A stretch of 32,000 nt of DNA from Desulfosarcina ovata subsp. ovata (GCF_009689005.1 NZ_AP021879.1:4548652-4580651), one strand, 5' to 3'. Numbered from the stretch's first letter, positions 8,337-21,972 are shown. The notes: generated by a model not told the origin, from the letters alone. Program-made: numbers and translations.

Positions 8337-10027
<1,691 letters not shown>

Positions 10028-10270: not shown

Positions 10271-11683
10271 ATGACACCAGCACAAGTTATGGCAATGGCA
10301 AAGGAAAAAGGCGTAAAAATCGTCGATATCCGCTTTATGGATTTTCCCGGAATGTGGCAGCACTTCAGTGTTCCGATCAGCGAACTCAGTGAAAGCAGCT
10401 TCGATGAAGGGTTCGGTTTTGACGGATCCAGTATCCGTGGCTGGCAGCCGATCAACGCTAGTGACATGCTGGTGGTGCCCGATGCCGCTACGGCGAAAAT
10501 CGACCCCTTCTTCAAGGCCCCGACCCTGGCCGTAATCGGCAACATCGTCGACCCCATTACCCTGGAGGCCTATTCCCGCGACCCGCGCAACATCGCCAAC
10601 AAGGCCGAAGCCTACCTGAAAAGCACCGGAATCGGTGACACCGCCTTCTTTGGCCCCGAAGCCGAATTTTTCATCTTTGACGACATCCGTTACGAAAGCA
10701 ACCGCAATGGCTGTTTCTACGCGGTGGATTCCGTGGAAGGCACCTGGAATACCGGACGCTGTGAAGAGCCCAACCTGGGATACAAACCGCGCCACAAGGA
10801 AGGCTACTTCCCCGTACCGCCGTCGGACAAGTTTCAGGACCTGCGCTCCGACATGCTGCTGACCCTGGAAGCCCTGGGCATCGACGTGGAGTGCCAGCAT
10901 CACGAAGTGGCCACTTCCGGTCAGGCCGAGATTGACATGCGCTTCAAACCCTTGGTGCAGATGGCCGACCAGCTCATGTGGTTCAAGTATGTCCTTAAAA
11001 ACGTCGCCTACCAAGCCGGCCATACCGTGACCTTCATGCCCAAACCGCTCTTCGAGGACAACGGTACCGGTATGCACACCCACATCAGCATCTGGAACGG
11101 CGACAAACCCCTGTTCGCCGGTGACAAGTATGCCGGCGTCTCCCAGGAAGCCCTGTGGGCCATCGGCGGCATCCTGAAACATTGCCGGGCCCTGTGCGCT
11201 TTCACCAACCCGACCACCAACTCCTACAAACGCCTGGTGCCGGGTTTCGAGGCACCGGTGAATCTGGCGTACTCCAGCCGGAACCGCAGCGCCGCCATCC
11301 GGATTCCCATGTATTCGGCATCACCCAAGGCCAAACGTATCGAGTTCCGTACGCCTGACCCGTCCTGCAACGGCTACCTGGCCTTCTCCGCCATGCTGAT
11401 GGCCGTCCTCGACGGCATCCAGAACAAACTCGATCCGGGCGATCCGCTGGATAAGAACCTTTACGATCTGCCACCCGAAGAACTGGCCGAAATTCCGTCC
11501 GCGCCGGGCGCTCTGGATGTCTCGCTGGCAGCGCTGGCCGAAGATAACGAATTCCTGCTCAAAGGCGACGTCTTCACCAAGGACGTGATTGATATGTGGA
11601 TTGACTACAAGACCGAAAACGAGGTCAACCCAGTGAAGCTGCGTCCGCATCCGCACGAGTTCCACCTGTACTACGACATCTAA
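10271..11683 (+). CDS. glnA: glutamine synthetase, type I
   Basis: 470 aa. Contains the GS-I blocks [27 protein letters not shown] and [14 protein letters not shown], plus the adenylylation loop [11 protein letters not shown]. Confidence 0.97.
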
Positions 11684-11731
11684 TGATCGAATGCGACCGA
11701 TTCCTCCCGACACGAACCGGTCCTCCCTGAA

Positions 11732-11772
11732 AACGGTAGCTCGCCACATGCGGCGGGCTACCGTTTTGATTT
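11732..11772 (+). terminator. rho-independent terminator of glnA
   Basis: AACGGTAGCTCGCC-acatgc-GGCGGGCTACCGTT forms a 14-bp stem with one mismatch, followed by TTGATTTCATTTC. Confidence 0.6.
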
Positions 11773-12150
11773 CATTTCAGAAGCATATCCGCGGCATCGC
11801 AGAAATCCAGCTCCTGCATTTTTAAAATCCGCGCTTCCGTATTGAGCACACCGCCGGGAATGACTTCCACCCCCAGTTTCTCGGCAGCATAATGAGCCGC
11901 CCAGAAGGCCACGAACATGTTGTAACCAAAGGGAAGCAGCATTCCGGTCGGTGATAGTTGTTTTTACCCGGCCCCTGAACCTCGCGCATCATGGACTTCT
12001 CGATCTTGGGAACCTTGCGAATATTTGCGAATGAATTTGGGAAGGCATTTCCCATATCCGAGAGAGGCATGGCCCGACATATGCTGCCGGATAAGGGACA
12101 TCTTGAGCGGCCAAATGTCGCTGTTTGAACTTCCCGCGGAAGTTGAAAAG
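11772..12150 (-). pseudogene. remnant of a PaaK / coenzyme F390 synthetase-like adenylate-forming ligase (fragmented)
   Basis: A short minus-strand ORF at 11772-11942 reads MLLPFGYNMFVAFWAAHYAAEKLGVEVIPGGVLNTEARILKMQELDF. This resembles the PaaK block GYGLFTGGLGxHYGAExLGxxVIPxSGGxTExQ. Upstream sequence gives only broken frames, so no intact gene is present. Confidence 0.35.
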
Positions 12151-12200
12151 ACTGCGCAGTGCTATGCCGGGAAGATTTTCGGAGAAGACAAGTCGCTGAT

Positions 12201-12304
12201 ATAGCATTCAAGATAATGTTTTTGGGCTGCGTTATCGGTCGTCGCAGTATGACAATACGGCTTCCTCCCTCTGGCCTTGCCAAAAACATTATCTTAAATG
12301 CTAT
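12201..12304. repeat. 25-bp inverted repeat (24/25 match) around a 54-bp spacer
   Basis: ATAGCATTCAAGATAATGTTTTTGG (12201-12225) pairs with the reverse complement of CCAAAAACATTATCTTAAATGCTAT (12280-12304). It is also visible as KNIILNAI in ORFs on both strands. Confidence 0.8.
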
Positions 12305-12305
12305 A

Positions 12306-12430
12306 GTAATGGATGTCGGAATCGCGACGAAAGAAAACGTGCAATGGCTGAGAGAAAAAAGGATTCAGATACCTCGTGGTCAGCAGAAAGTACCGCAGGG
12401 AATCTCCGGGCGAAATTAAAAACGTTCGAG
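12306..12430 (+). pseudogene. DDE transposase fragment (IS4/IS1634-like), frameshifted
   Basis: VMDVGIATKENVQWLREK in one frame continues as GFRYLVVSRKYRRE in the next frame. This resembles the first catalytic-Asp region of IS4-superfamily transposases. No full-length transposase ORF is present. Confidence 0.45.
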
Positions 12431-12517
12431 GCTATAGAATGATAGTCCAAAAAGCTATGTTATCATTGATCTTTCAATTTTGCAGTGACAAAGATGGGTT
12501 AAAAATAAAATCGAATT

Positions 12518-13159
12518 TTATTTCATGGCAATCAGTTTTTCTTCAGGTCTTTTTTCATCTTTACCGGTTACAGATTTGTTCATCAATTTATCCAGTTGTG
12601 AATTATCCCAGCGTTGAAACAGGTCATGTTCTATACCCATGTAATCCAGGACCTTTCCCACGGACTGATTAATAATATCATCAAGGCTTTTGGGATGATG
12701 ATAAAACGCCGGCACTGGCGGGATTATATGCGCCCCCATGTCTGCGGCTTGGATTAACAGCCGTAAATGTCCTTTATGCAAAGGGGTTTCCCTGAACAGC
12801 AGTGCCACATTACGTTTTTCTTTGAGTTGGACATCTGCGGCTCGGATCAGGAGATTCTCATTATAAGAATTGGCAATTCCAGACAGGGTTTTAACCGTAC
12901 AGGGCGCAACCACCATGCCCATGGTCAAAAATGAACCGCTGGCAACAGATGCGGTAATATCTTTATTGCTATAGGTGACATCCGCCATGGCAAGGACGTC
13001 ATCCACATCATAATCAGTCTCTATCCGGATATTGAGCTTTCCGGGCTCTGAAATAATCAGATGGGTTTCAATGCCTATATTTTTCAAAACTTCAAGCATT
13101 CTGACGCCATAAATGACGCCACTTGCCCCGGCTATCCCTACGATTAATCGCTTTGCCAT
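12518..13159 (-). CDS. ubiX: UbiX-family flavin prenyltransferase (prFMN synthase)
   Basis: 213 aa. MAKRLIVGIAGASGVIYGVRMLEVL...APCTVKTLSGIANSY.ENLLIRAADV.LKE.R is the characteristic UbiX/Pad1 flavoprotein signature. An AAAGGGG RBS precedes the start. Confidence 0.9.
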   Translation of the reverse strand: MAKRLIVGIAGASGVIYGVRMLEVLKNIGIETHLIISEPGKLNIRIETDYDVDDVLAMADVTYSNKDITASVASGSFLTMGMVVAPCTVKTLSGIANSYNENLLIRAADVQLKEKRNVALLFRETPLHKGHLRLLIQAADMGAHIIPPVPAFYHHPKSLDDIINQSVGKVLDYMGIEHDLFQRWDNSQLDKLMNKSVTGKDEKRPEEKLIAMK

Positions 13160-13244
13160 ATCCGACCCCTTTGGATTCCGCGGTTAACACTATTTTTTTA
13201 GGTGATATCTTTGGTTCCAACGATACACTTCAAGCCCAAAAGAA

Positions 13245-13276
13245 CCCTTCCCCCACGTTCAGTTGTGAAGGAAGGG
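13245..13276 (-). terminator. weak hairpin between the ubiD-like gene and ubiX (possible attenuator)
   Basis: CCCTTCC-N18-GGAAGGG. On the minus-strand transcript it is followed by TTCTTTT. The stem is only 7 bp. Confidence 0.25.
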
Positions 13277-13311
13277 GTAATCCATTTCAAAACAACTGAT
13301 ATGCCGTTTTT

Positions 13312-14820
13312 TTATGACATTTCGCTGTTTTCAAGAAAACGCGTGATATCAACTTCCATGAACTCCGCTCTTTTGAAGCGGTCCTTCAGATCATAGCGGA
13401 CGGTACAGTCAAATATGGTCTTGCACGATGTGCCCGGGGTGATAATGGATGGACTTATATCCGGTCTCTGTGACGGATCCAGAGGATGACACCGTACGCC
13501 GGGGATGGAAATGGTATCCACATCACTCTGATACCGTGTCATCATGGCCCATAGAACGTCTTTGCTGTCAAAAATATCCACATCTTCATCCACCAGAATC
13601 ACGGTCTTCAACTCCGGGAAAGCGGAAAAAGCACAAATTGCCGCCTGACGTTCACGTCCCTGGTCTACAGGGACTATTTTACGGAACTGAATTACGGCCA
13701 AAAGCTTGCCGCCGCCGGCCGGATGACAGTAAACATTCAAGACACGGCCAGGCATAGCTTTTTCAACCACGGTTAAAATACTCGCCTCGGTGGGAATACC
13801 TGCCAGGTTCACATGTTCTTCGCTGGGCCCGATAGTGGTTTGAGTAATGGGATGAATGCGATGGGTAACAGCCTTGATTTTGAATACTGGCAGGGATGGA
13901 TTGGCCGGCCCGTTGTAACCAGGGAATTCAGGCATGGCACGCCCTGTTTTGGTGTTCATATCCTCAACAACACGACGGTCCGGCAACAGCTCTCCTTCAA
14001 TAACAATCTCGGCATTGGCAATGGCTTTGGCATTAACCGTGAGGCACTCCACCATTTCCACCGGACGGTTACGCAGGGAACCTGCAATATCCAGCTCATT
14101 GTAGCCAATGGGTGTGGCCGGGGGCTCAAAGCAGGCGGCAATGTAAACGGCCGGGTCCAGGCCGATGCTTACTGAAATGGGAAGTGATTTTCCCTGTGCT
14201 TCGGCCTTTTCACGGAAAGCACCAATATGCCTTCCCGGCACGAAATACATGGAAATCTCATCTTTTGACTGCAGGCACTGGCGATGAATGGTTACATCTT
14301 CTTCACCGGTTTCCGGATCTGAACCATAAACCAGCCCCATAGTAATAAATGGGCCTGCATCCTCCGGGGTGTTGGTTGGCGCTGGAATCAGTTTGCGGAT
14401 ATCAAAACCGGGATCCGTGGCCCGGTGAACAACTTCCTGGCAAACCGCCTTTTCCTTGGAGATCATCACAGGAGGCAGGGGATTTTTCAACGCTTCATTC
14501 ATTTTATGACCCAGATAACGCGGATCCGTTCCCAACAAAAGTCCGACACGTTCACGACTGCCCACCACGCCAATGGCCACCCGCGCGTCGTCATACCCCT
14601 TAATGTTATTGAAAAGCATCATGGGACCCGTCTGGGTCGGGCGGCTGACAGTTCCTCCAGCTCCAATTTTTTTATAAACGCCTGCCAGTTCAGCATGGGG
14701 GTCCACTTCTTCATTTGTTTGCATCAGCTGGCCGGGCTGGGTTGAAAGAAAAGATAATGCAGAACGAAGGTCAATAATATCGGATCCCGATACACCGCTG
14801 TTGGATTCTTCTTTTTTCAT
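13312..14820 (-). CDS. UbiD-family prFMN-dependent (de)carboxylase
   Basis: Start set at the ATG at 14820 (MKKEESN...), preceded by AAGGA; the track start 14853 is TTG. UbiD-type blocks include PEDAGPFITMGLV, IHRQ, LPISVSIGLDPA, IVIEGEL, and LVDEDVDIFDSKDVLWAMMTR near the C-terminus. Confidence 0.9.
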   Translation of the reverse strand: MKKEESNSGVSGSDIIDLRSALSFLSTQPGQLMQTNEEVDPHAELAGVYKKIGAGGTVSRPTQTGPMMLFNNIKGYDDARVAIGVVGSRERVGLLLGTDPRYLGHKMNEALKNPLPPVMISKEKAVCQEVVHRATDPGFDIRKLIPAPTNTPEDAGPFITMGLVYGSDPETGEEDVTIHRQCLQSKDEISMYFVPGRHIGAFREKAEAQGKSLPISVSIGLDPAVYIAACFEPPATPIGYNELDIAGSLRNRPVEMVECLTVNAKAIANAEIVIEGELLPDRRVVEDMNTKTGRAMPEFPGYNGPANPSLPVFKIKAVTHRIHPITQTTIGPSEEHVNLAGIPTEASILTVVEKAMPGRVLNVYCHPAGGGKLLAVIQFRKIVPVDQGRERQAAICAFSAFPELKTVILVDEDVDIFDSKDVLWAMMTRYQSDVDTISIPGVRCHPLDPSQRPDISPSIITPGTSCKTIFDCTVRYDLKDRFKRAEFMEVDITRFLENSEMS

Positions 14821-14855
14821 GTTTTTTCCTTTATGATGATAATGAGTTGTCAAGA

Positions 14856-16523
14856 TTATGCCATCTGGGCTTCAGTCTTGAGTTTGTTCTCAATATCTTC
14901 ACGCAGAGTCCGCTTATCCAGTTTCTGTGCGCCGGTATACGGCATCTCATCAATGAATTCTATACGCTCGGGAAGTTGGAGTACAGACGCATCCTGGGCC
15001 TTTAAGAAAGCAATAACATTATCAAAGTCCAGTTGACTTCCTTCGGTCGGCTGAATATAGGCACACGCCTTTTCTCCCATATCCTCGTCCGGCATGGGAA
15101 TCACCGCCACCATGGCAACTTCCGGATGAAGCGTGATCAATTTTTCAATTTCTGTAGAACTGATGCTTTCTCCTCCCCGGTTGATCATCTCTTTGATACG
15201 GCCGGTCAAAGTGATGTAGCCGTTTTCATCGATCCTGGCCAGATCGCCGGTTTTGAAAAATCCATCTTCATTCAATGCTGTCTTGTTTTCTTCCGGATTT
15301 TCATAATACCCGGTAAAGACCCCGGGGCCTTTGAGAACCAGCTCGCCCTGTTTGCCGGTTTCCACTTCTTTTCCGAAAGGATCAATCACCTTGTAGGTAT
15401 CATAGGGACAGGTAGGTCGCCCCACGGTCCCGCAGATGGTTTCAAGGTCATTATTGATTCGAGTGATGGTGGTCGGTCCCTCTGTTCCGCCATATCCATT
15501 GAAAAATTTGCAGTTCAATTTGTCTATGACGTCTTTTACCATACCCGGATGGCTGGCACCGCCGGCACTGTGCATCTTCTGCAGGGAAGTCAAATCATAT
15601 TGATTGATATCTTCGTATTGCAGCAGTCTTTGGGCCAGGGTCGGTACCCATATAATTGAAGTGATTTTCTCCTGTTGAATGGTTTCACAAATGCTTTTAT
15701 TATCCGGAGAGTCCAGCAGAACTACCTTGCCCATGGTGATGATAGAGCCCATGAAGCCTTTGCTGAAGGACAAATCATGACCAATAGGACCGGCGATGAG
15801 GTTGATATCCAGATTGCTTTGTTCCCATGATCTTGAACAATAGGTAATGCCGGTCACCAGACTGTTATGACTGCGGGGAACAACTTTAGGTGCTCCTGTG
15901 GTTCCGCCGGTGGGGCCCATGTGTGCAATCTGCATGGGATCCGGACGTCGTTGTACAAGACGATCCAGGTTCTCTTGGGTCATGTCAGCCTTTGCCATTA
16001 AGCCTTCAAGACTTTCAAATTTTTCTCCGGCCCGTTCGCCCCGGACTGTAATCACTTTTTTAATTCCGGGATTTTCTTTCAGAACGTCATCCATAATAGG
16101 CGTGTAGTCAGTTTTTTTGTGCTTGACAGGAACAACCCAATAGGTGGCACCGGTTATGTTCGTCAAATGATTGATCTCATACTGGCGATACCGGTCGATC
16201 AACAGAACCGTGATGGCACCGATTTTTTGAAGGGCAAAATAAGCGAAAACAAACTCGTTCCAGTTGGGTAACTGCACCATAACTCTATCTTTGGGCTGAA
16301 TGCCCAAATCCATCATACCGATGGCCAACTGATTTACTTTTTCTCTAGCTTCACCATAGGTTAACCGGGTGACACGATCTACAAAAGCCTCTTTGTCCGG
16401 ATGAACATCCGCGGCACGATCAAGAAGATCGCCAAACGTCAATCCCTCCCACCATTTTAACTCGTTGTACTTTTTAACATCTTCTTCTTTGTAAGGCACG
16501 CACCCTGATAATAAATCAACCAT
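14856..16523 (-). CDS. aryl-carboxylate CoA/AMP ligase (EntE/DhbE-like adenylate-forming enzyme)
   Basis: Contains LTYGEAREKVNQLA, VMVQLPNWNEFVFAYFALQKIGA (compare EntE VQLPN..EF), GPTGGTTGAPKVVPRSH (the A3 motif), GYGGTEG, TGDLARIDENGYITLTGRIKEMINRGGE. The preferred start is the ATG at 16523 after GAGAGGAA; the ATG at 16550 is an alternative. Confidence 0.85.
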   Translation of the reverse strand: MVDLLSGCVPYKEEDVKKYNELKWWEGLTFGDLLDRAADVHPDKEAFVDRVTRLTYGEAREKVNQLAIGMMDLGIQPKDRVMVQLPNWNEFVFAYFALQKIGAITVLLIDRYRQYEINHLTNITGATYWVVPVKHKKTDYTPIMDDVLKENPGIKKVITVRGERAGEKFESLEGLMAKADMTQENLDRLVQRRPDPMQIAHMGPTGGTTGAPKVVPRSHNSLVTGITYCSRSWEQSNLDINLIAGPIGHDLSFSKGFMGSIITMGKVVLLDSPDNKSICETIQQEKITSIIWVPTLAQRLLQYEDINQYDLTSLQKMHSAGGASHPGMVKDVIDKLNCKFFNGYGGTEGPTTITRINNDLETICGTVGRPTCPYDTYKVIDPFGKEVETGKQGELVLKGPGVFTGYYENPEENKTALNEDGFFKTGDLARIDENGYITLTGRIKEMINRGGESISSTEIEKLITLHPEVAMVAVIPMPDEDMGEKACAYIQPTEGSQLDFDNVIAFLKAQDASVLQLPERIEFIDEMPYTGAQKLDKRTLREDIENKLKTEAQMA

Positions 16524-16633
16524 GTCTTGTTCCTCTCTTCTTCGACTCATTGAGTCAAGTTAGGGTAAGAGCAATCTGGTCCTGAGGACCGGATCTTCGG
16601 CTTGCCATCCCCAAGGCAGGGATGAAGCACTAT

Positions 16634-16686
16634 CCAAGGAATGAATTAGATAGTTTTTTTTAATTTATTCAAGGAATGAATCAGAT
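16634..16686. promoter_or_regulatory. two LysR-type boxes (ATyCA-AGGAA-TGAAT; T-N11-A) spaced 34 bp, in the ligase/lysR divergent promoter region
   Basis: TCCAAGGAATGAATTAGAT (16634-16652) and TTCAAGGAATGAATCAGAT (16668-16686). The second contains the perfect dyad ATTCA-N5-TGAAT. Confidence 0.4.
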
Positions 16687-16945
16687 TAATTCTTTTGAAG
16701 AATTATATGCAGGCAACAAACAAGTCAATTCATAGAATTTTATAATATAATAAGTAATTTTAAACTTGACTTTTTTATTTTATAAAAATAAATTTTCATA
16801 CAAGAAAAAATGAATAAAATTCAGATAGACCATAACTATTTAAAAAAATAGGTTTTTTTATTCAAAAAGGATGGCTGGCAGTACCATTGTGCCAAAATTT
16901 ACGGATAAATCTGAAATGCTTACCCTTTTTTAAAGGACAAGTATT

Positions 16946-17874
16946 ATGCATCCTCCTCAAATTAACCTCTACCAACTTATTAGCTTTTATACCGTGGCCA
17001 AAGAAGGTAGCTTCAGTGCAGCCTCAAAAAAACTTTGCGTGACCCAGCCTGCGGTGACCATGCAAATAAAATCGTTGGAAAAATTTTATGACCTGAAGTT
17101 GGTCAATGTAAAAAAAAAAAAGTTAGCTTGACAGAAACAGGACAGAAGCTGTTCCATTATGCTGAGCAATTCTACCTGTCGGCCATCAAGGCGGAAACCT
17201 TTCTTCAGGAGCAAAAAAACAATAATTTGAGTATTGGCATAGCAAGTCCCCTGACCCAACAGTTCATTGTTCTGATTAAAAAATTCAAGCAATACTACCC
17301 CCATGTAATGGTAACGCTCAGAGAAGGCACTGACCAAGAAATCATTGCAGATGTTCGTGATTTCAAACTGATGCTGGGGTTTATCGGCACGATTGAGCAG
17401 TCGGTTCGTGAACTCAATGTGATTCCTGTTGCACCTGAAAACAGATTGGTACTGGTTTCCTTCCCCCAGAATCCCTTGGCCTGCAAAGAAAAAGTAATCT
17501 GGAAGGACTTGGAAGGTTGTTCGCTGATTATTCATCGAGAAGGCATGACCGGGCGAAATATAATTCTTGATGCATTTAAAAAAAATAGAATTAAACCCGT
17601 TATAACCGCTGAAATTGAAAGCATCGAAGGCATGAAAAATCTGATCAAGCAGGACGCAGGAATTGGCCTGAAATTTTTCCCAAATGTCAAAGAAGAAATT
17701 TTGAATAAAACGCTTAAAATCATTCCATTAGAAAGCGATCAGCTGAAGATCGGGATAGATGCCGTTTTTCAGGCAAATATCAGTCTTTCCCTGCCTTCAA
17801 AAGCCTTTCTGGATATTGCCATCGAACATTTCAATAACATTTCCACCAAAGTGAGCGCTGGTTCAGTTAAATAG
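16946..17874 (+). pseudogene. LysR-family transcriptional regulator split by a frameshift in an A12 homopolymer (ORFs 16946-17131 and 17128-17874)
   Basis: The N-terminal ORF carries the LysR HTH (LYQLISFYTVAKEGSFSAASKKLCVTQPAVTMQIKSLE). The second ORF resumes with (L)TETGQKLFHYAE and carries the substrate-binding domain. A run of 10 or 13 A would give one continuous 309-310 aa LTTR. Confidence 0.8.
17110..17121 (+). repeat. A12 homopolymer at the LysR frameshift point
   Basis: Direct count of GT-AAAAAAAAAAAA-GTTAGC. Confidence 0.95.
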
Positions 17875-18014
17875 GTAATAATAGATAACCATTTTGGCTG
17901 GTGGGTAAGGTTTTCGACATGTTCCGCATTGAGAACCGCTGCTTTCGGCACTGGGAAAGCCACAAACTCAACCACGCCATTACCATGCTGCGGACGGAAG
18001 GGGCTTGATCAGGA

Positions 18015-19103
18015 ATGCCGATGCGCCATGACATGTTCGCCCCCCGAGCTGATCCGGTAGCAACAGGATCCACCGGCCAGCGAAAGTGGGAGCATCTCCG
18101 CATTTGTACGCAAAACGATGTCACGTTCGAAAAGAGCAGCGGTTTTGAGTGCTACGACCTCGAACACCAGGCCCTTCCCGAACGCTGCCTTGAGGAGATC
18201 GATACGTCAACCACATTTCTCGGTAAAAAATTCAACCTCCCGTTTTTCATCGAAGCGATGACCGGTGGCTGTCCGGGAACGGAAACGATCAATCAGAATC
18301 TCGCCCGGGCGGCGGAGGAGATGGGAATCGGAATGGGCGTCGGCTCACAGCGGGCCATGCTCGACGATCCATCACTTGCCTATACGTACCAGGTGAGAAG
18401 CGTGGCTCCGAACATCCTGCTGCTGGGCAATATCGGCGCTGCTCAGCTGGCCGGCCGGCATGGGAAGGCGATCGCCGGTCTGATTCGAGAAATCGATGCC
18501 GACGGGATTGCCGTTCACCTCAATGCCGCCCAGGAGTTATGCCAGCCCGAAGGGGACAAGGACTGGCGCAATATGATTGTTCACATCAAAGAGGTCTGCA
18601 CCGCCGTAAACGGTCCAATCATCGCCAAGGAGACGGGTTGCGGCATCGCCGGCGGAATCGCGGCGACACTGGAATCCCTCGGAATCGATGCATTGGATAT
18701 CGCCGGTGCCGGGGGGACTTCCTTTACCCGGGTTGAACATCACCGCGGCGCCAGCCTGGCCAAAGCCTTTTTCGAGTGGGGCATCCCGACGGCCGCGTCG
18801 TTAAAGCAGTGCCGGTGCGCGATACAAATTCCCATCATCGCCTCCGGGGGAATCCGGTCCGGCGTGGACGCTGCCAAAGCTCTCGCCATGGGCGCTTCGA
18901 TCGTAGGATTTGCTCTGCCCCTGCTGATACCGGCCATGCAATCCTATCAGGCCGTTATCGACAAACTGACGCAATTTGCAAGCGAGTTGAAAATGGCCAT
19001 GCTTCTGGCGGGGGCAGCGACGATTCAGGGGCTTTCCGCAACCCGGGTTGTCGAGCGGGCATGCTGTTATGGGCCGTTGATGCATCGGCCAACCGTTTCA
19101 TAA
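18015..19103 (+). CDS. fni: type 2 (FMN-dependent) isopentenyl-diphosphate delta-isomerase
   Basis: 362 aa. Contains QRKWEHLRI, FFIEAMTGG, MGVGSQRA, HLNAAQE, IAKETGCGI, DIAGAGGTSF and IASGGIRSG, the typical IDI-2 TIM-barrel signature. The exact start is uncertain, with ATG codons at 18015, 18021 and 18033. Confidence 0.9.
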   Translation: MPMRHDMFAPRADPVATGSTGQRKWEHLRICTQNDVTFEKSSGFECYDLEHQALPERCLEEIDTSTTFLGKKFNLPFFIEAMTGGCPGTETINQNLARAAEEMGIGMGVGSQRAMLDDPSLAYTYQVRSVAPNILLLGNIGAAQLAGRHGKAIAGLIREIDADGIAVHLNAAQELCQPEGDKDWRNMIVHIKEVCTAVNGPIIAKETGCGIAGGIAATLESLGIDALDIAGAGGTSFTRVEHHRGASLAKAFFEWGIPTAASLKQCRCAIQIPIIASGGIRSGVDAAKALAMGASIVGFALPLLIPAMQSYQAVIDKLTQFASELKMAMLLAGAATIQGLSATRVVERACCYGPLMHRPTVS

Positions 19104-19149
19104 CATCACCATACGGAATCCATAAAATTTGTTGTTTTGGCAATGATGG

Positions 19150-19176
19150 CAGGATGCAACACTTCGTTGCATCCTG
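19150..19176 (+). terminator. perfect 11-bp hairpin after fni (terminator or attenuator; no U-tract)
   Basis: CAGGATGCAAC-acttc-GTTGCATCCTG. Confidence 0.35.
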
Positions 19177-19234
19177 ATCGCTTTAAACGGCCCTCTTTTT
19201 GACAGCCACATCAACCCCAATACGGTACAGCGTT

Positions 19235-19972
19235 ATGCTGCTTGACCCAAAAACGATTGCCTGCATGATATTTGATCTGGACGGAACCCTGATCGACTCC
19301 ATCCCGCCTTATTTCCGCCTGCTGGAAGGCATTTTTGACACCCTGGGTTTGCCGCAACCCGCGCTTGCCTTGAAAAAGGAGTTTATTACTACCGGGCCGG
19401 CGGTGTTTGAAAAAATGATTCCTCCGGAAATGGTTGCTGACCGGGACGCGATGATCCGCCAGTGCCTGGACGTGGGGCGGCGGATATCCCGCGATATGTT
19501 CCGTGACACGGTCGATGGGTTTCCTGATGTCAAGCGTTTGTTTGATCTGCTGGTTCGTCATGACATCCGCATCGGAATTGTCACCACGACCGAAAGAGAG
19601 TTTATCGAAAGAAAACTCCTGCCCTTGAAAAGAATCGGTGTTGCCGCGGCCGTCGATGCCATTGTTGCCATTGAAGATGCGCCCCGGCGCAAGCCGGCCC
19701 CGGATCCCTTGCTCGTTTGTGCGCGGCAGCTTTCCGTCAACCCCGAGCATTGTGTCTATGTCGGCGATTCTTATGTGGACATCCGCGCCGGCTGCAGCGC
19801 GGGGATGAAAACCATCGCCGTTCTCAGTGGCCTGGATGATTTCGATACGCTTGACAGAGAAAGGCCGACAGTAATCGTTCAGAACATCGCCGCCATATGG
19901 CGCACTTTGGATGAGTATTTCTCTTGTCCGAATAACCATGAGAAAAGCGGGGAATACCTCTACCATGCATAA
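19235..19972 (+). CDS. HAD-superfamily phosphatase (phosphoglycolate phosphatase-like subfamily)
   Basis: Motif I is MIFDLDGTLIDS, motif II IVTTT, and motif III/IV K(P)APDP...YVGDSYVDIRAG. The ATG at 19235 is preferred over the TTG at 19199. Confidence 0.8.
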   Translation: MLLDPKTIACMIFDLDGTLIDSIPPYFRLLEGIFDTLGLPQPALALKKEFITTGPAVFEKMIPPEMVADRDAMIRQCLDVGRRISRDMFRDTVDGFPDVKRLFDLLVRHDIRIGIVTTTEREFIERKLLPLKRIGVAAAVDAIVAIEDAPRRKPAPDPLLVCARQLSVNPEHCVYVGDSYVDIRAGCSAGMKTIAVLSGLDDFDTLDRERPTVIVQNIAAIWRTLDEYFSCPNNHEKSGEYLYHA

Positions 19973-20396
19973 AAAAACGAAAATTAACGAGACCATGACC
20001 ATATCGGGACGTATCCAAAGCGGGGTCGGCAAAGGCTCCTTTTTCACATCGCTGGATTGGGTCGTTCAACAGTGTGAAGACAAACTGGGCTATGCACCGT
20101 TTCCAGGTACCCTCAACATACGGGTACGCGATGAAGACGTTCCCAAACTGCAGCACTTTTTGGCGAAAACGGACGCCGAACTCGTCCCTGAAGATCGTTC
20201 GTTTTGTGCCGCGCCGGTTAAGAAAGTGATGATCAAAGGCGTTCCGGCGGCGGTGGTCCTGCCGACCGAGGATGTCCGCATTCATGAAGATCGGATTCTC
20301 GAAATCATTTCACCGCACAGTTTCAAGCAATCTTTTGGCCTTCACGATGGCGACCAGATCAGTATCATCGGCAAAACCACAATTATAAAAAAGTGA
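19965..20396 (+). CDS. ribK: archaeal-type (CTP-dependent, DUF120) riboflavin kinase
   Basis: ISGRIQSGVGKGSFFTSLDWVVQQCEDKLGYAPFPGTLNIRV...ILEIISPHSFKQSFGLHDGDQISI follows the GxVxSGxGxGxxF...LGxxPFxGTLN...IEIIxP...LxDGD pattern of MJ0056-type kinases. The proposed ATG overlaps the HAD stop codon (ATGCATAA). Confidence 0.8.
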   Translation: MHKKTKINETMTISGRIQSGVGKGSFFTSLDWVVQQCEDKLGYAPFPGTLNIRVRDEDVPKLQHFLAKTDAELVPEDRSFCAAPVKKVMIKGVPAAVVLPTEDVRIHEDRILEIISPHSFKQSFGLHDGDQISIIGKTTIIKK

Positions 20397-20403
20397 CGAA
20401 ATC

Positions 20404-20748
20404 ATGACCGTAAAAATTTACAATGAGATTTACGAATTTGCCGCATCCGCGGGTGCCCTGGAAGGCTACGTCTTCTTAAAAAAGGATCTGCAGGCGGATC
20501 ATCTCGACAATTGGATTCGGAATCTTGAGAATCAATATCGACTGCTTCCAGAGGAAGTCAGGCAATGTGTCCAGACATCCGTGGACCGGACATTGGGAAG
20601 GGCATGGCAATCGATTGCTGCGGTTCTTGGAGAGACGCACAGGCACGTACGGTCCCTGAAATCAATGACAGCGGGCAATCCGCCTGACTCTCCACAGGAT
20701 TTTGAGAAAGAGAAAAAAGAGAAAGCAGAAAAGTATTGCACCGGTTGA
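20404..20748 (+). CDS. hypothetical protein (114 aa, Lys/Glu-rich C-terminus)
   Basis: ORF begins 8 nt after the ribK stop on the same strand. I recognise no family. Confidence 0.45.
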   Translation: MTVKIYNEIYEFAASAGALEGYVFLKKDLQADHLDNWIRNLENQYRLLPEEVRQCVQTSVDRTLGRAWQSIAAVLGETHRHVRSLKSMTAGNPPDSPQDFEKEKKEKAEKYCTG

Positions 20749-20752
20749 TCCT

Positions 20753-21277
20753 TTATTCTCTGTGTTCCGGCTGAGCCATACTATATAAATCGATTTCGCT
20801 GCGGAACCCGAACTGGACGCTGTTGTCCAGGTAGTAAACGCACTGTGGCGTGAAGCAGTACAGCTTTACTCGAAAGCGCTTGCTGAAACCAACCAGATCA
20901 ATCACCTGCCCGTCCTCGAAAAAATCACTGGTAAACGGGAACTTGCCGATATAGGCGCGTACGGCCTGAAGCGCCCGGAACCCCGGTCGTACCGGTGATA
21001 CCTGCCCGGACATTTGAATCCCGCGAATGCCCTGCCACGTCTCGGCATACGGATAGATGGCAGCGGCCACCGAATCATTCGCCAGTGCCTCCTGAACATG
21101 TTGCGATTCCGGTTTGGAAAAGAAATAAAAGGCCGCTTTCTGCCGCACATAATAGACCGGTGCCGCCCAGGCCCGGTTGTTTGCTGACGTTGCCAGGGTC
21201 ATCGTGGACTGCTGGTCAATCAATTCAAGCGCGGCGGTCTTGTGTCTCGACATGGGCGCGTCCAATGGTTTGCTCAT
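20753..21277 (-). CDS. pyridoxamine 5'-phosphate oxidase-like FMN-binding split-barrel protein
   Basis: STMTLATSANNRAWAAPVYYV...FYFFSKPESQHVQ...IRGIQMSG is the PNPOx-family pattern. Start set at the ATG at 21277 after GGAG; the track start 21304 is TTG. Confidence 0.65.
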   Translation of the reverse strand: MSKPLDAPMSRHKTAALELIDQQSTMTLATSANNRAWAAPVYYVRQKAAFYFFSKPESQHVQEALANDSVAAAIYPYAETWQGIRGIQMSGQVSPVRPGFRALQAVRAYIGKFPFTSDFFEDGQVIDLVGFSKRFRVKLYCFTPQCVYYLDNSVQFGFRSEIDLYSMAQPEHRE

Positions 21278-21300
21278 CTCTGGTCTCCATAGCTTCGGTG

Positions 21301-21705
21301 TCAATGATCAGCGTCATCTCCGCCTTTGGATTTGAGCAGGGCTTCCAGGGCGGCAAAGGGTTTATGGGAAAAATCCGAATCCGCCGATTTTTCTTTTGAT
21401 GGGGAATGATTGTCGTAGGACTCGGCCACTTCCAGGCGGCCATGCTCGTTATCATGGCAATAGATGCATAAAAGTTCCCAGTTGCTGCCATCGGGCGGAT
21501 TGTTGTCGTGGTTATGATCCCGGTGGTGGACGGTCAGCTCCCGCAGTTGCTTGCCACTGAATTCCCGACCACAGCGACCACAGACATGCGGATACATCTT
21601 GAGCGCTTTTTCGCGGTAGGTTTTTTCCCGATCCTGCATATGGCGACGGGCATCGGCCACGACCTGGGAAAGTCGATTCGAATCGTTGGTTTTGTTTTTC
21701 GGCAT
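21301..21705 (-). CDS. yajD: YajD-family HNH nuclease-fold protein
   Basis: YREKALKMYPHVCGRCGREFSGKQLRELTVHHRDHNHDNNPPDGSNWELLCIYCHDNEH is near-collinear with E. coli YajD as I recall it. Confidence 0.85.
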   Translation of the reverse strand: MPKNKTNDSNRLSQVVADARRHMQDREKTYREKALKMYPHVCGRCGREFSGKQLRELTVHHRDHNHDNNPPDGSNWELLCIYCHDNEHGRLEVAESYDNHSPSKEKSADSDFSHKPFAALEALLKSKGGDDADH

Positions 21706-21972
21706 CTTTCTGACTCCATGGAATTTGAACGTTGATGGATGGCACCATTTGAAAATTTCCCACCTCGGCGTTTACTGTTCATACCATCCCCACCGCCCCT
21801 GAACAAGCCGTCTCTCGATGCTGCGAGCATCGGTGTCAACGCCCCACAACATGCGCTGCTCAATGAATTTATAGTGGCTTCGGCATGGAGCAGTCTCGAC
21901 GGCTATGCCCGGCAGGCGCGTCAGGGCCTGTGTTCAGTTTCGTTGATGGGCGGGCCGGAAAAAACGGTGTAC

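Follow-up and report, generated by a model that had tools for sequence, protein, structure and literature searches.

A candidate precursor-supply gene block for prenylated flavin next to ubiX in Desulfosarcina ovata

Why should genes for an isopentenyl diphosphate (IPP) isomerase and an archaeal-type riboflavin kinase lie next to those of a UbiX flavin prenyltransferase and a UbiD enzyme? The question is raised by a stretch of 32,000 nt from Desulfosarcina ovata subsp. ovata (NZ_AP021879.1:4548652-4580651), hereafter the window, where fni, a HAD phosphatase gene, a DUF120-type riboflavin kinase gene (ribK), an open reading frame (ORF) for a protein of 114 aa (orf114) and a gene for a PNPOx-like protein occupy positions 18015 to 21277. 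A preliminary description of this sequence, which placed all five genes correctly or nearly so, proposed that they form a dedicated module delivering the precursors of prenylated flavin mononucleotide (prFMN). Our analysis partly supports this interpretation. We consider it fairly probable, judging from the families of the encoded proteins and the linkage of their genes, that the block represents the distal half of an operon older than the present arrangement in Desulfosarcina, and that its job is to increase the supply of both UbiX substrates locally.

What connects the block with UbiX is the 3′ remnant of an older ubiX, 111 nt long, which lies between lysR and fni and whose stop codon is found 6 nt before the fni ATG. 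The remnant matches residues 165-197 of the D. variabilis UbiX with 67% identity (tblastn E=1.8e-9), shows 73.7% nucleotide identity over 95 nt and aligns in frame with the C-terminus of the D. cetonica UbiX, its UbiX type being that of these two species. Its location directly before fni implies that fni once stood immediately downstream of ubiX and that this ubiX was cut by the low-GC island now present upstream. Since the island interrupted an adjacency that already existed, the link between the block and UbiX is older than the insertion. As far as the sequence can tell, then, the association predates the island and is not undone by it.

This result bears on a caveat of the preliminary description, namely that the present ubiX and ubiD might have become neighbours of the block through an insertion accident. 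For these two genes the suspicion was right, because the G+C content at third codon positions (GC3) splits the two blocks: it is 0.44-0.50 in ubiX, ubiD, the ligase gene and lysR, as opposed to 0.66-0.75 in the flanking host genes, with fni, HAD and PNPOx at 0.62-0.67 and ribK and orf114 at intermediate values (0.50-0.56). Overall GC amounts to 41-50% in the ligase/UbiD/UbiX/LysR stretch and to 48-59% in the block, for which about 65% had first been given. The locus, when compared with its relatives, shows a replacement of the upstream half of the operon by a low-GC island with its own UbiX, AroY-like UbiD, ligase and LysR, together with the loss of a gene of the family that we call p191: the window lacks the ~0.7 kb that hold p191 between fni and HAD in D. 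variabilis (locus L095). No remnants of p191 or of the upstream UbiD/gamma genes were found elsewhere in the window. The cassette thus now adjoins a new UbiX/UbiD client.

How would the complete operon look? It is still intact and co-directional in D. variabilis, where UbiD-PhenylP_gamma-UbiD-UbiX-fni-p201-HAD-ribK-orf111 occupy one strand, with gaps of at most 70 nt or overlaps, and are convergent with LysR-UbiD-PNPOx. We propose that the ancestral form was UbiD-gamma-UbiD-UbiX-fni-(p191)-HAD-ribK-orf114, facing a convergent (UbiD-)PNPOx unit. UbiD-UbiX-RibBA-fni operons lie 5-9 kb from HAD-ribK in D. cetonica (L003) and in metagenome-assembled genomes (MAGs) of Desulfosarcina (L009) and Desulfobacula (L015). 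A metagenome scan with fni returned 5 loci, of which only the contig L088, carrying UbiD-UbiD-UbiX-fni, was informative, the others being too short. The window fni is 63-68% identical to the fni genes placed after ubiX in L095, L088 and L003. In a Thermodesulfobacteriota MAG (L030) the order is UbiX-UbiD-RibK~HAD-fni-p191, the tilde denoting a fusion, and in a Bacillota MAG (L066) it is RibK~HAD-p191-UbiX-Nudix. The strongest single argument comes from a Desulfobacula locus (L029), in which UbiX-TIGR04076-HAD-orf114-RibK~HAD is followed by a type-1 IPP isomerase of Nudix fold (11088-11639; 201 vs 127 bits for NF002995 and 143.5 vs 105.8 for TIGR02150). Here an isomerase unrelated to fni, with the same predicted activity, takes the same slot.

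Is this association more frequent than expected? We examined 33 distinct bacterial and 53 archaeal DUF120 ribK loci, with a neighbourhood of 10 kb. The comparison of neighbourhoods, proposed in the preliminary description as a test of its idea, came out in favour of a link: UbiX/UbiD are found near 10 of the 33 bacterial ribK genes versus 1 of the 53 archaeal ones (Fisher p=2e-4), and the bacterial proportion also exceeds a generous background of 6.5% (binomial p=3e-5). An IPP isomerase is present in 7/8 of the UbiX-containing ribK loci and in 0/25 of the others (p=1.9e-6). Our literature searches turned up neither a linkage of fni, ribK or RibBA with ubiX nor a cassette of this kind; the closest published findings are the Nudix/ThiM routes to DMAP, the helpers LpdD, PhdC and YclD that act after UbiX, and a UbiD-UbiX-NUDIX transcript.

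The family assignments of the encoded proteins are of different firmness. The product of fni is, on its family membership, an IPP isomerase: it belongs to the TIGR02151 equivalog IPP_isom_2 (384.7 bits, cutoff 281.3, residues 22-346 matched) and contains the FMN-dependent TIM-barrel domain PF01070 (80.5 bits). In the case of ribK, PF01982 is matched with 98.1 bits (cutoff 25), the archaeal kinases of PDB entries 3cta and 2p3m align over the whole domain (E=1e-15 to 1e-13) and the invariant motifs are kept, that is, the Gly-rich N-terminus G..G...G, PFPGTLN, H, E and DGD. The protein thus shares domain and conserved motifs with the archaeal kinases MJ0056 and RbkR/TA1064, which depend on cytidine triphosphate (CTP), but it belongs to a bacterial clade with HAD, orf114, UbiX and IPP isomerases as partners, is not fused to a winged helix-turn-helix domain and scores below the archaeal equivalog cutoffs; in archaea, ribK is typically linked to genes of riboflavin synthesis and adjoins ribB in ~24/53 loci. 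HAD is a phosphatase of subfamily IA (PF13419 104.6 bits; TIGR01509/TIGR01549 above cutoff; FDLDGTL seen in the translation) whose closest PDB relatives are phosphoglycolate-phosphatase-like proteins, and against the named NCBIfam equivalogs it remains below every cutoff, the best being PGP_bact (101.9 vs 180) and PpaX (92.3 vs 218). Its start is probably ATG 19235 or ATG 19265, and with either of them the DxDGT motif (MIFDLDGTL) becomes N-terminal; in the D. ovata record the annotated start corresponds to 19265. The ATGCATAA overlap through which HAD and ribK had been thought to be translationally coupled is present (ATG 19965, TAA 19970-19972), and a ribK beginning at ATG 19965 would have an 8-nt overlap with the HAD stop, yet in most homologues the start corresponds to ATG 19995. 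All ORFs of the block are intact and full-length in comparison with orthologues that are 58-70% identical.

How might these proteins serve UbiX? In the mechanism that we propose, the type-2 isomerase (IDI-2) would shift the pool of IPP and dimethylallyl diphosphate (DMAPP) to DMAPP, and the DUF120 kinase would turn riboflavin into FMN, a branch to which sister genomes add a RibBA gene between ubiX and fni. UbiX would then join DMAPP and FMN into prFMNH2 for the neighbouring UbiD decarboxylase/carboxylase. HAD and orf114 are placed in the flavin branch, where they would act, because both occur fused to RibK: HAD at the RibK C-terminus in seven loci (L021, L024, L026, L028, L029, L030 and L066), and orf114 at either end (P0007, P0014, P0017, L010, L013, L016, P0196, P0198 and P0213). 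UbiD enzymes are wanted for C-H carboxylation and decarboxylation and are hard to get active, the bottleneck being cofactor supply and maturation. A natural operon in which UbiX is combined with an IPP isomerase, a riboflavin kinase (with RibBA in relatives) and helpers suggests genes with which prFMN loading might be improved in heterologous hosts. Bacterial DUF120 kinases would also receive a first functional context, as would two unannotated families, orf114 and p191, and there would be candidates for how strict anaerobes make and mature prFMN.

Several observations weigh against this reading. The positive loci are phylogenetically clustered (4 Desulfosarcina, 2 Desulfobacula), so that the p-values overstate independence, even if gene order does differ among them. 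In 23 of the 33 bacterial ribK loci no UbiX/UbiD is seen in the available flanks; at least 5 of these loci have full 10-kb flanks, and their contexts include, for example, AhpC or Hdr/MetF-like genes. The ribK product falls below the NCBIfam equivalog cutoffs (ribK_Meth 66.8 vs 168, PRK14165 79.7 vs 279), so its kinase function and its use of CTP are putative, and our literature search yielded no bacterial DUF120 kinase that had been characterised. The family of the PNPOx-like protein, with at least 324 close homologues, is large and turns up in unrelated contexts as well (L096). In the window itself the block is without its native upstream operon and promoter and without p191, and the lysR that it now follows on the same strand is frameshifted. 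Finally, the codon changes between two D. ovata strains are 2 synonymous and 5 non-synonymous in the block versus 28 and 5 in the neighbouring genes (p=0.006), a hint of relaxed constraint that counts only 7 changes, too few to settle selection. As a consequence of the 23 loci without UbiX/UbiD, the ribK-HAD-orf114 core is not exclusive to prFMN, and the word "dedicated" of the preliminary description has to be given up: around two thirds of the loci carry the core, with or without PNPOx, in unrelated contexts. The idea of precursor supply keeps its ground for fni and, statistically, for ribK; it loses ground on two points, since the core is not reserved for prFMN and HAD is improbable as the enzyme that forms dimethylallyl monophosphate (DMAP).

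The same loci suggest an alternative, which we think possible though unlikely, namely that ribK-HAD-orf114(-PNPOx) is a mobile unit of flavin supply or homeostasis for which UbiX is just one context and fni the only UbiX-specific element. Specifically, a second riboflavin kinase and a phosphatase acting on flavins or on the riboflavin precursor 5-amino-6-ribitylamino-2,4(1H,3H)-pyrimidinedione 5′-phosphate (ARPP) would serve any flavin-hungry pathway, like the plant fusion of FMN hydrolase and riboflavin kinase. In this plant protein, AtFMN/FHy, a HAD phosphatase domain and a riboflavin kinase reside on one polypeptide; the kinase fold is unrelated to that of RibK and the order is reversed, since in the bacterial fusions RibK is N-terminal and HAD C-terminal. 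A general FMN unit would account for the roughly two thirds of bacterial ribK loci with no UbiX/UbiD nearby, for contexts such as AhpC-ribK-orf114 or HAD-ribK beside an Hdr/MetF-like flavoenzyme block, and for the RibK~HAD and RibK~orf114 fusions, which tie HAD and orf114 to RibK and not to UbiX. It would leave unexplained why the frequency of UbiX/UbiD among the bacterial loci is far above the archaeal control and the background, and why ribK lies inside the UbiX operon itself in L095, L029, L030 and L066. It is also at odds with the results on FMN riboswitches. The window contains no match to the FMN riboswitch (RFN) or to any other Rfam family at the gathering score, nor at E<=1 over 16400-21800, and neither this riboswitch nor any other Rfam family was found in 15 related loci; riboswitch control of the block was rejected on these grounds, and the module therefore stands outside the usual bacterial riboflavin regulon.

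Might some of the proteins act more directly on the cofactor? Small accessories that are co-transcribed with ubiX/ubiD and improve cofactor delivery have been described, namely the chaperone LpdD, the maturase PhdC and YclD (PMC10865409, PMC13040415), PhdC and YclD being flavin-binding beta-barrel proteins that mature prFMN (PMC13040415). The PNPOx-like protein is built on a flavin-binding beta-barrel as PhdC is, and its orthologues in D. cetonica, D. variabilis and L008 are located downstream of UbiD, a likeness that we take as an analogy only. The known accessories act after UbiX, binding or oxidising prFMN, whereas the cassette described here would act before UbiX, in precursor supply. Which oxidant matures prFMN physiologically in anaerobes is, according to the literature, not known (PMC13040415). 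It is conceivable, and in our opinion rather doubtful, that orf114, the RibK-fused HAD, the PNPOx-like protein and p191 serve specifically in the biogenesis of prFMN in strict anaerobes, as enzymes or as chaperones; for instance, RibK~HAD might deliver both UbiX substrates, or the PNPOx-like protein or p191 might be an oxygen-independent prFMN maturase or carrier.

The preliminary description offered yet another role for HAD, the hydrolysis of DMAPP to DMAP, so that the cassette would feed DMAP and FMN to a DMAP-specific UbiX. This version is very unlikely. The best family matches of HAD do include the pyrophosphatase PpaX (92 bits) and inorganic diphosphatase, which brings hydrolysis of a phosphoanhydride within reach of the subfamily, and the RibK~HAD fusions of the UbiX operons L029, L030 and L066 could make both substrates on one polypeptide. 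All its equivalog scores are, however, below cutoff, and HAD tracks RibK, which it adjoins in 23/33 loci with or without UbiX or isomerase. The UbiX proteins themselves also speak against a DMAP-forming step. In the DMAP-specific UbiX of Pseudomonas aeruginosa, Phe181 blocks the beta-phosphate, to which Gln203 in the Aspergillus niger enzyme (specific for DMAPP) and His164 in the O157 enzyme (of dual specificity) form bonds (Marshall et al., PMC6541611); the same study warns that specificity is not determined by this residue alone. At the position equivalent to PaUbiX-F181, AnUbiX-Q203 and O157-H164, 9/9 distinct linked UbiX proteins carry Gln (the window and L029) or His (the rest), and none carries Phe. 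Since Gln or His occupies the beta-phosphate contact, the linked UbiX would probably use DMAPP directly, a lead rather than a proof, and a step from DMAPP to DMAP would not be needed. For HAD, the role of ARPP phosphatase in riboflavin synthesis, or that of a phosphatase of flavin phosphates, is likelier than that of a DMAPP phosphatase.

As for DMAP sources, E. coli obtains this compound through the Nudix hydrolases NudB/F/I/J and through ThiM, a kinase (Wang et al. 2018, cited in PMC12359138), and promiscuous Nudix enzymes and ThiM are the only known sources (PMC12359138), which leaves room for a phosphatase such as HAD. L066, in which a separate Nudix hydrolase lies beside UbiX, argues in the opposite direction. 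Both the E. coli enzymes and the cassette would serve the prenyl-donor side of prFMN synthesis; the former are unlinked, promiscuous and housekeeping, whereas here the UbiX operon includes a dedicated isomerase gene, for IDI-2 or, in L029, for IDI-1. The Nudix hydrolase gene of L066 (2393-2977) is of the NudE/ADP-ribose-pyrophosphatase type and directly follows UbiX. A UbiD-UbiX-NUDIX polycistron has been seen in the metatranscriptome of a benzene-degrading culture and was read by its authors as a hydroxylase candidate (PMC5852087).

The least probable explanation, that in this particular genome the block is a functionless remainder of the operon that was replaced, and that its nearness to the new UbiX/UbiD has no present function, would agree with the truncation of the native operon witnessed by the ubiX stub, with the deletion of p191, with the frameshift in lysR and with the non-synonymous excess, and is countered by five intact, full-length ORFs, by the 7 changes from which the whole hint on the ratio of non-synonymous to synonymous substitutions comes, and by the UbiX/UbiD client and same-strand lysR that the island put directly upstream.

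The coordinates of the genes considered so far, of the acquired island and of further features are listed in Table 1.

Table 1. Features of the locus; positions refer to the window, except for p191, where they refer to the related loci
Feature	Position	Strand	Basis or remark
fni, type-2 (FMN-dependent) isopentenyl-diphosphate isomerase by family	18015-19103	+	TIGR02151, PF01070; alternative start ATG 18021
HAD-IA phosphatase with cap domain	19235-19972	+	PF13419; ORF opens at TTG 19199
ribK, DUF120 archaeal-type (CTP-dependent) riboflavin kinase homologue	19965 or 19995 to 20396	+	PF01982
orf114, small all-helical protein	20404-20748	+	conserved; no Pfam/NCBIfam match
PNPOx-like (YhbP/UPF0306-like) FMN-binding split-barrel protein	20753-21277/21304	-	PF01243; convergent with orf114
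3′ remnant of older ubiX	17898-18008	+	36 codons plus stop, LVGKVFDMFRIENRCFRHWESHKLNHAITMLRTEGA; tblastn, nucleotide identity, frame alignment
Perfect hairpin, 11-bp stem, 5-nt loop	19150-19176	+	fni-HAD spacer; unique in window
Low-GC3 acquired island	12518-17874		ubiX, AroY-like UbiD and ligase on -; LysR on +
ubiX of the island	12518-13159	-	
ubiD, AroY-like	13312-14853	-	PDB 5o3n, 658.6 bits
Aryl-acid AMP/CoA ligase	14856-16550	-	resembles dihydroxybenzoate-AMP ligase
LysR regulator	16946-17874	+	frameshifted in A12 run 17110-17121
p191 family genes	L003:8607-9182, L095:12046-12651, L009:8692-9282, L030:11973-12521, L066:1212-1727		

In the island, the UbiD is predicted to be an AroY-type protocatechuate decarboxylase, and the ligase/UbiD/UbiX set looks like an acquired low-GC3 module for catechol or protocatechuate. 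The island UbiX is 83% identical to that of the Desulfobacula MAG L029. Over ~16 kb the window is 99.2% identical to D. ovata subsp. sediminis (AP021876), of which it is a strain variant; a look-up of the exact window fni sequence gave no match. The split LysR comprises a 61-aa N-terminal helix-turn-helix part and a 248-aa substrate domain in different frames, and AP021876 is annotated with an identical split. Possible readings are a pseudogene, a sequencing error in the homopolymer that both records share, or a site prone to slippage. The ~0.8 kb that separate glnA from the end of the island ubiX (11684-12517) hold no credible gene and possibly represent the left edge of the acquired island; no trace of the older operon was detected in this interval.

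Is the block transcribed as one unit? The preliminary description suspected that a hairpin might separate fni from HAD-ribK. The hairpin exists and its stem is perfect, but it is not scored as an intrinsic terminator, and this role is unsupported by the terminator scan. It is located in the short replacement spacer where the relatives carry the p191 gene.

The fusions with RibK indicate that orf114 is, as far as gene context can tell, a genuine RibK partner. Its family is very small: a word-indexed search gave 53 homologues, all labelled hypothetical, and there are 89 representatives among 1.84 billion. The AlphaFold2 model is a five-helix bundle with a mean predicted local distance difference test (pLDDT) score of 90.2, and a structure search with it gave no PDB fold match at E<0.5. 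The orf114 domain is also fused to an HD phosphohydrolase domain in P0202 (311 aa), and P0194 contains two orf114 repeats. In L093 (541-10336) and L012, orf114 is found ~8.5 kb from HAD-ribK; in L093 the genes in between form an Hdr/MvhD/MetF-like block, and a cytidylate-kinase-like gene and a flavodoxin-like FMN reductase come after orf114.

The PNPOx-like protein is a member of the split-barrel family PF01243 (36.7 bits, cutoff 28.1). Its AlphaFold2 model (pLDDT 90.6) matches 2hq9, 2i02, 2arz and 2hti in Foldseek with E=2e-8 and probability 1.0, these being flavin- and haem-binding PNPOx-like split barrels, and against the YhbP (UPF0306) model NF002900 the protein reaches 41.8 bits, below the cutoff of 176. 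Homology with PhdC, a maturase with the conserved residues Glu47/Glu136 (ExW), was considered and rejected: in the PDB, phmmer and profile searches gave no match beyond generic PNPOx-like proteins, and PhdC lies outside the top 50 Foldseek matches. In D. cetonica and D. variabilis the gene directly downstream of a UbiD gene encodes a PNPOx orthologue; in L008 the two are separated by two delta-like genes. In the window a yajD-family HNH nuclease gene (21301-21705, - strand) is immediately upstream of the PNPOx-like gene, at the place that UbiD holds in D. variabilis and D. cetonica.

Members of the p191 family are 170-200 aa long, share the conserved Cys motifs CLPC, CWK and RGC and have no Pfam/NCBIfam match. 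All loci in which we found them are linked to UbiX, and in D. variabilis the gene lies between fni and HAD. We regard p191 as a candidate UbiX-specific accessory.

Other genes recur in the related loci. The Hydrolase_3-type proteins form pairs of ~185 aa that adjoin one UbiD paralogue (L008:2476-3597, L009:13322-14456 and L030:2658-3801) and resemble the delta subunit of phenylphosphate carboxylase. This subunit had also been considered as an identity for HAD and was rejected, as it is a small cap-less phosphatase of ~185 aa encoded beside the UbiD-like alpha/beta subunits, whereas the window HAD is a capped IA type travelling with ribK, and as 182-188-aa Hydrolase_3-type proteins fill the role beside UbiD in L008, L009 and L030. 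UPF0261 (Tm-1-like) genes lie near ribK in L003 (4599-7040), L019, L022, L029 (5984-7201) and L030 (3798-5012); they accompany UbiD in L003, L029 and L030, and in L019 and L022 there is no UbiD/UbiX nearby. Finally, in L029 the gene immediately behind UbiX (8630-8944) is that of a small Cys-rich protein of the TIGR04076 family; next comes a second HAD-IA paralogue, homologues of which also occur in L015, L024 and L080.

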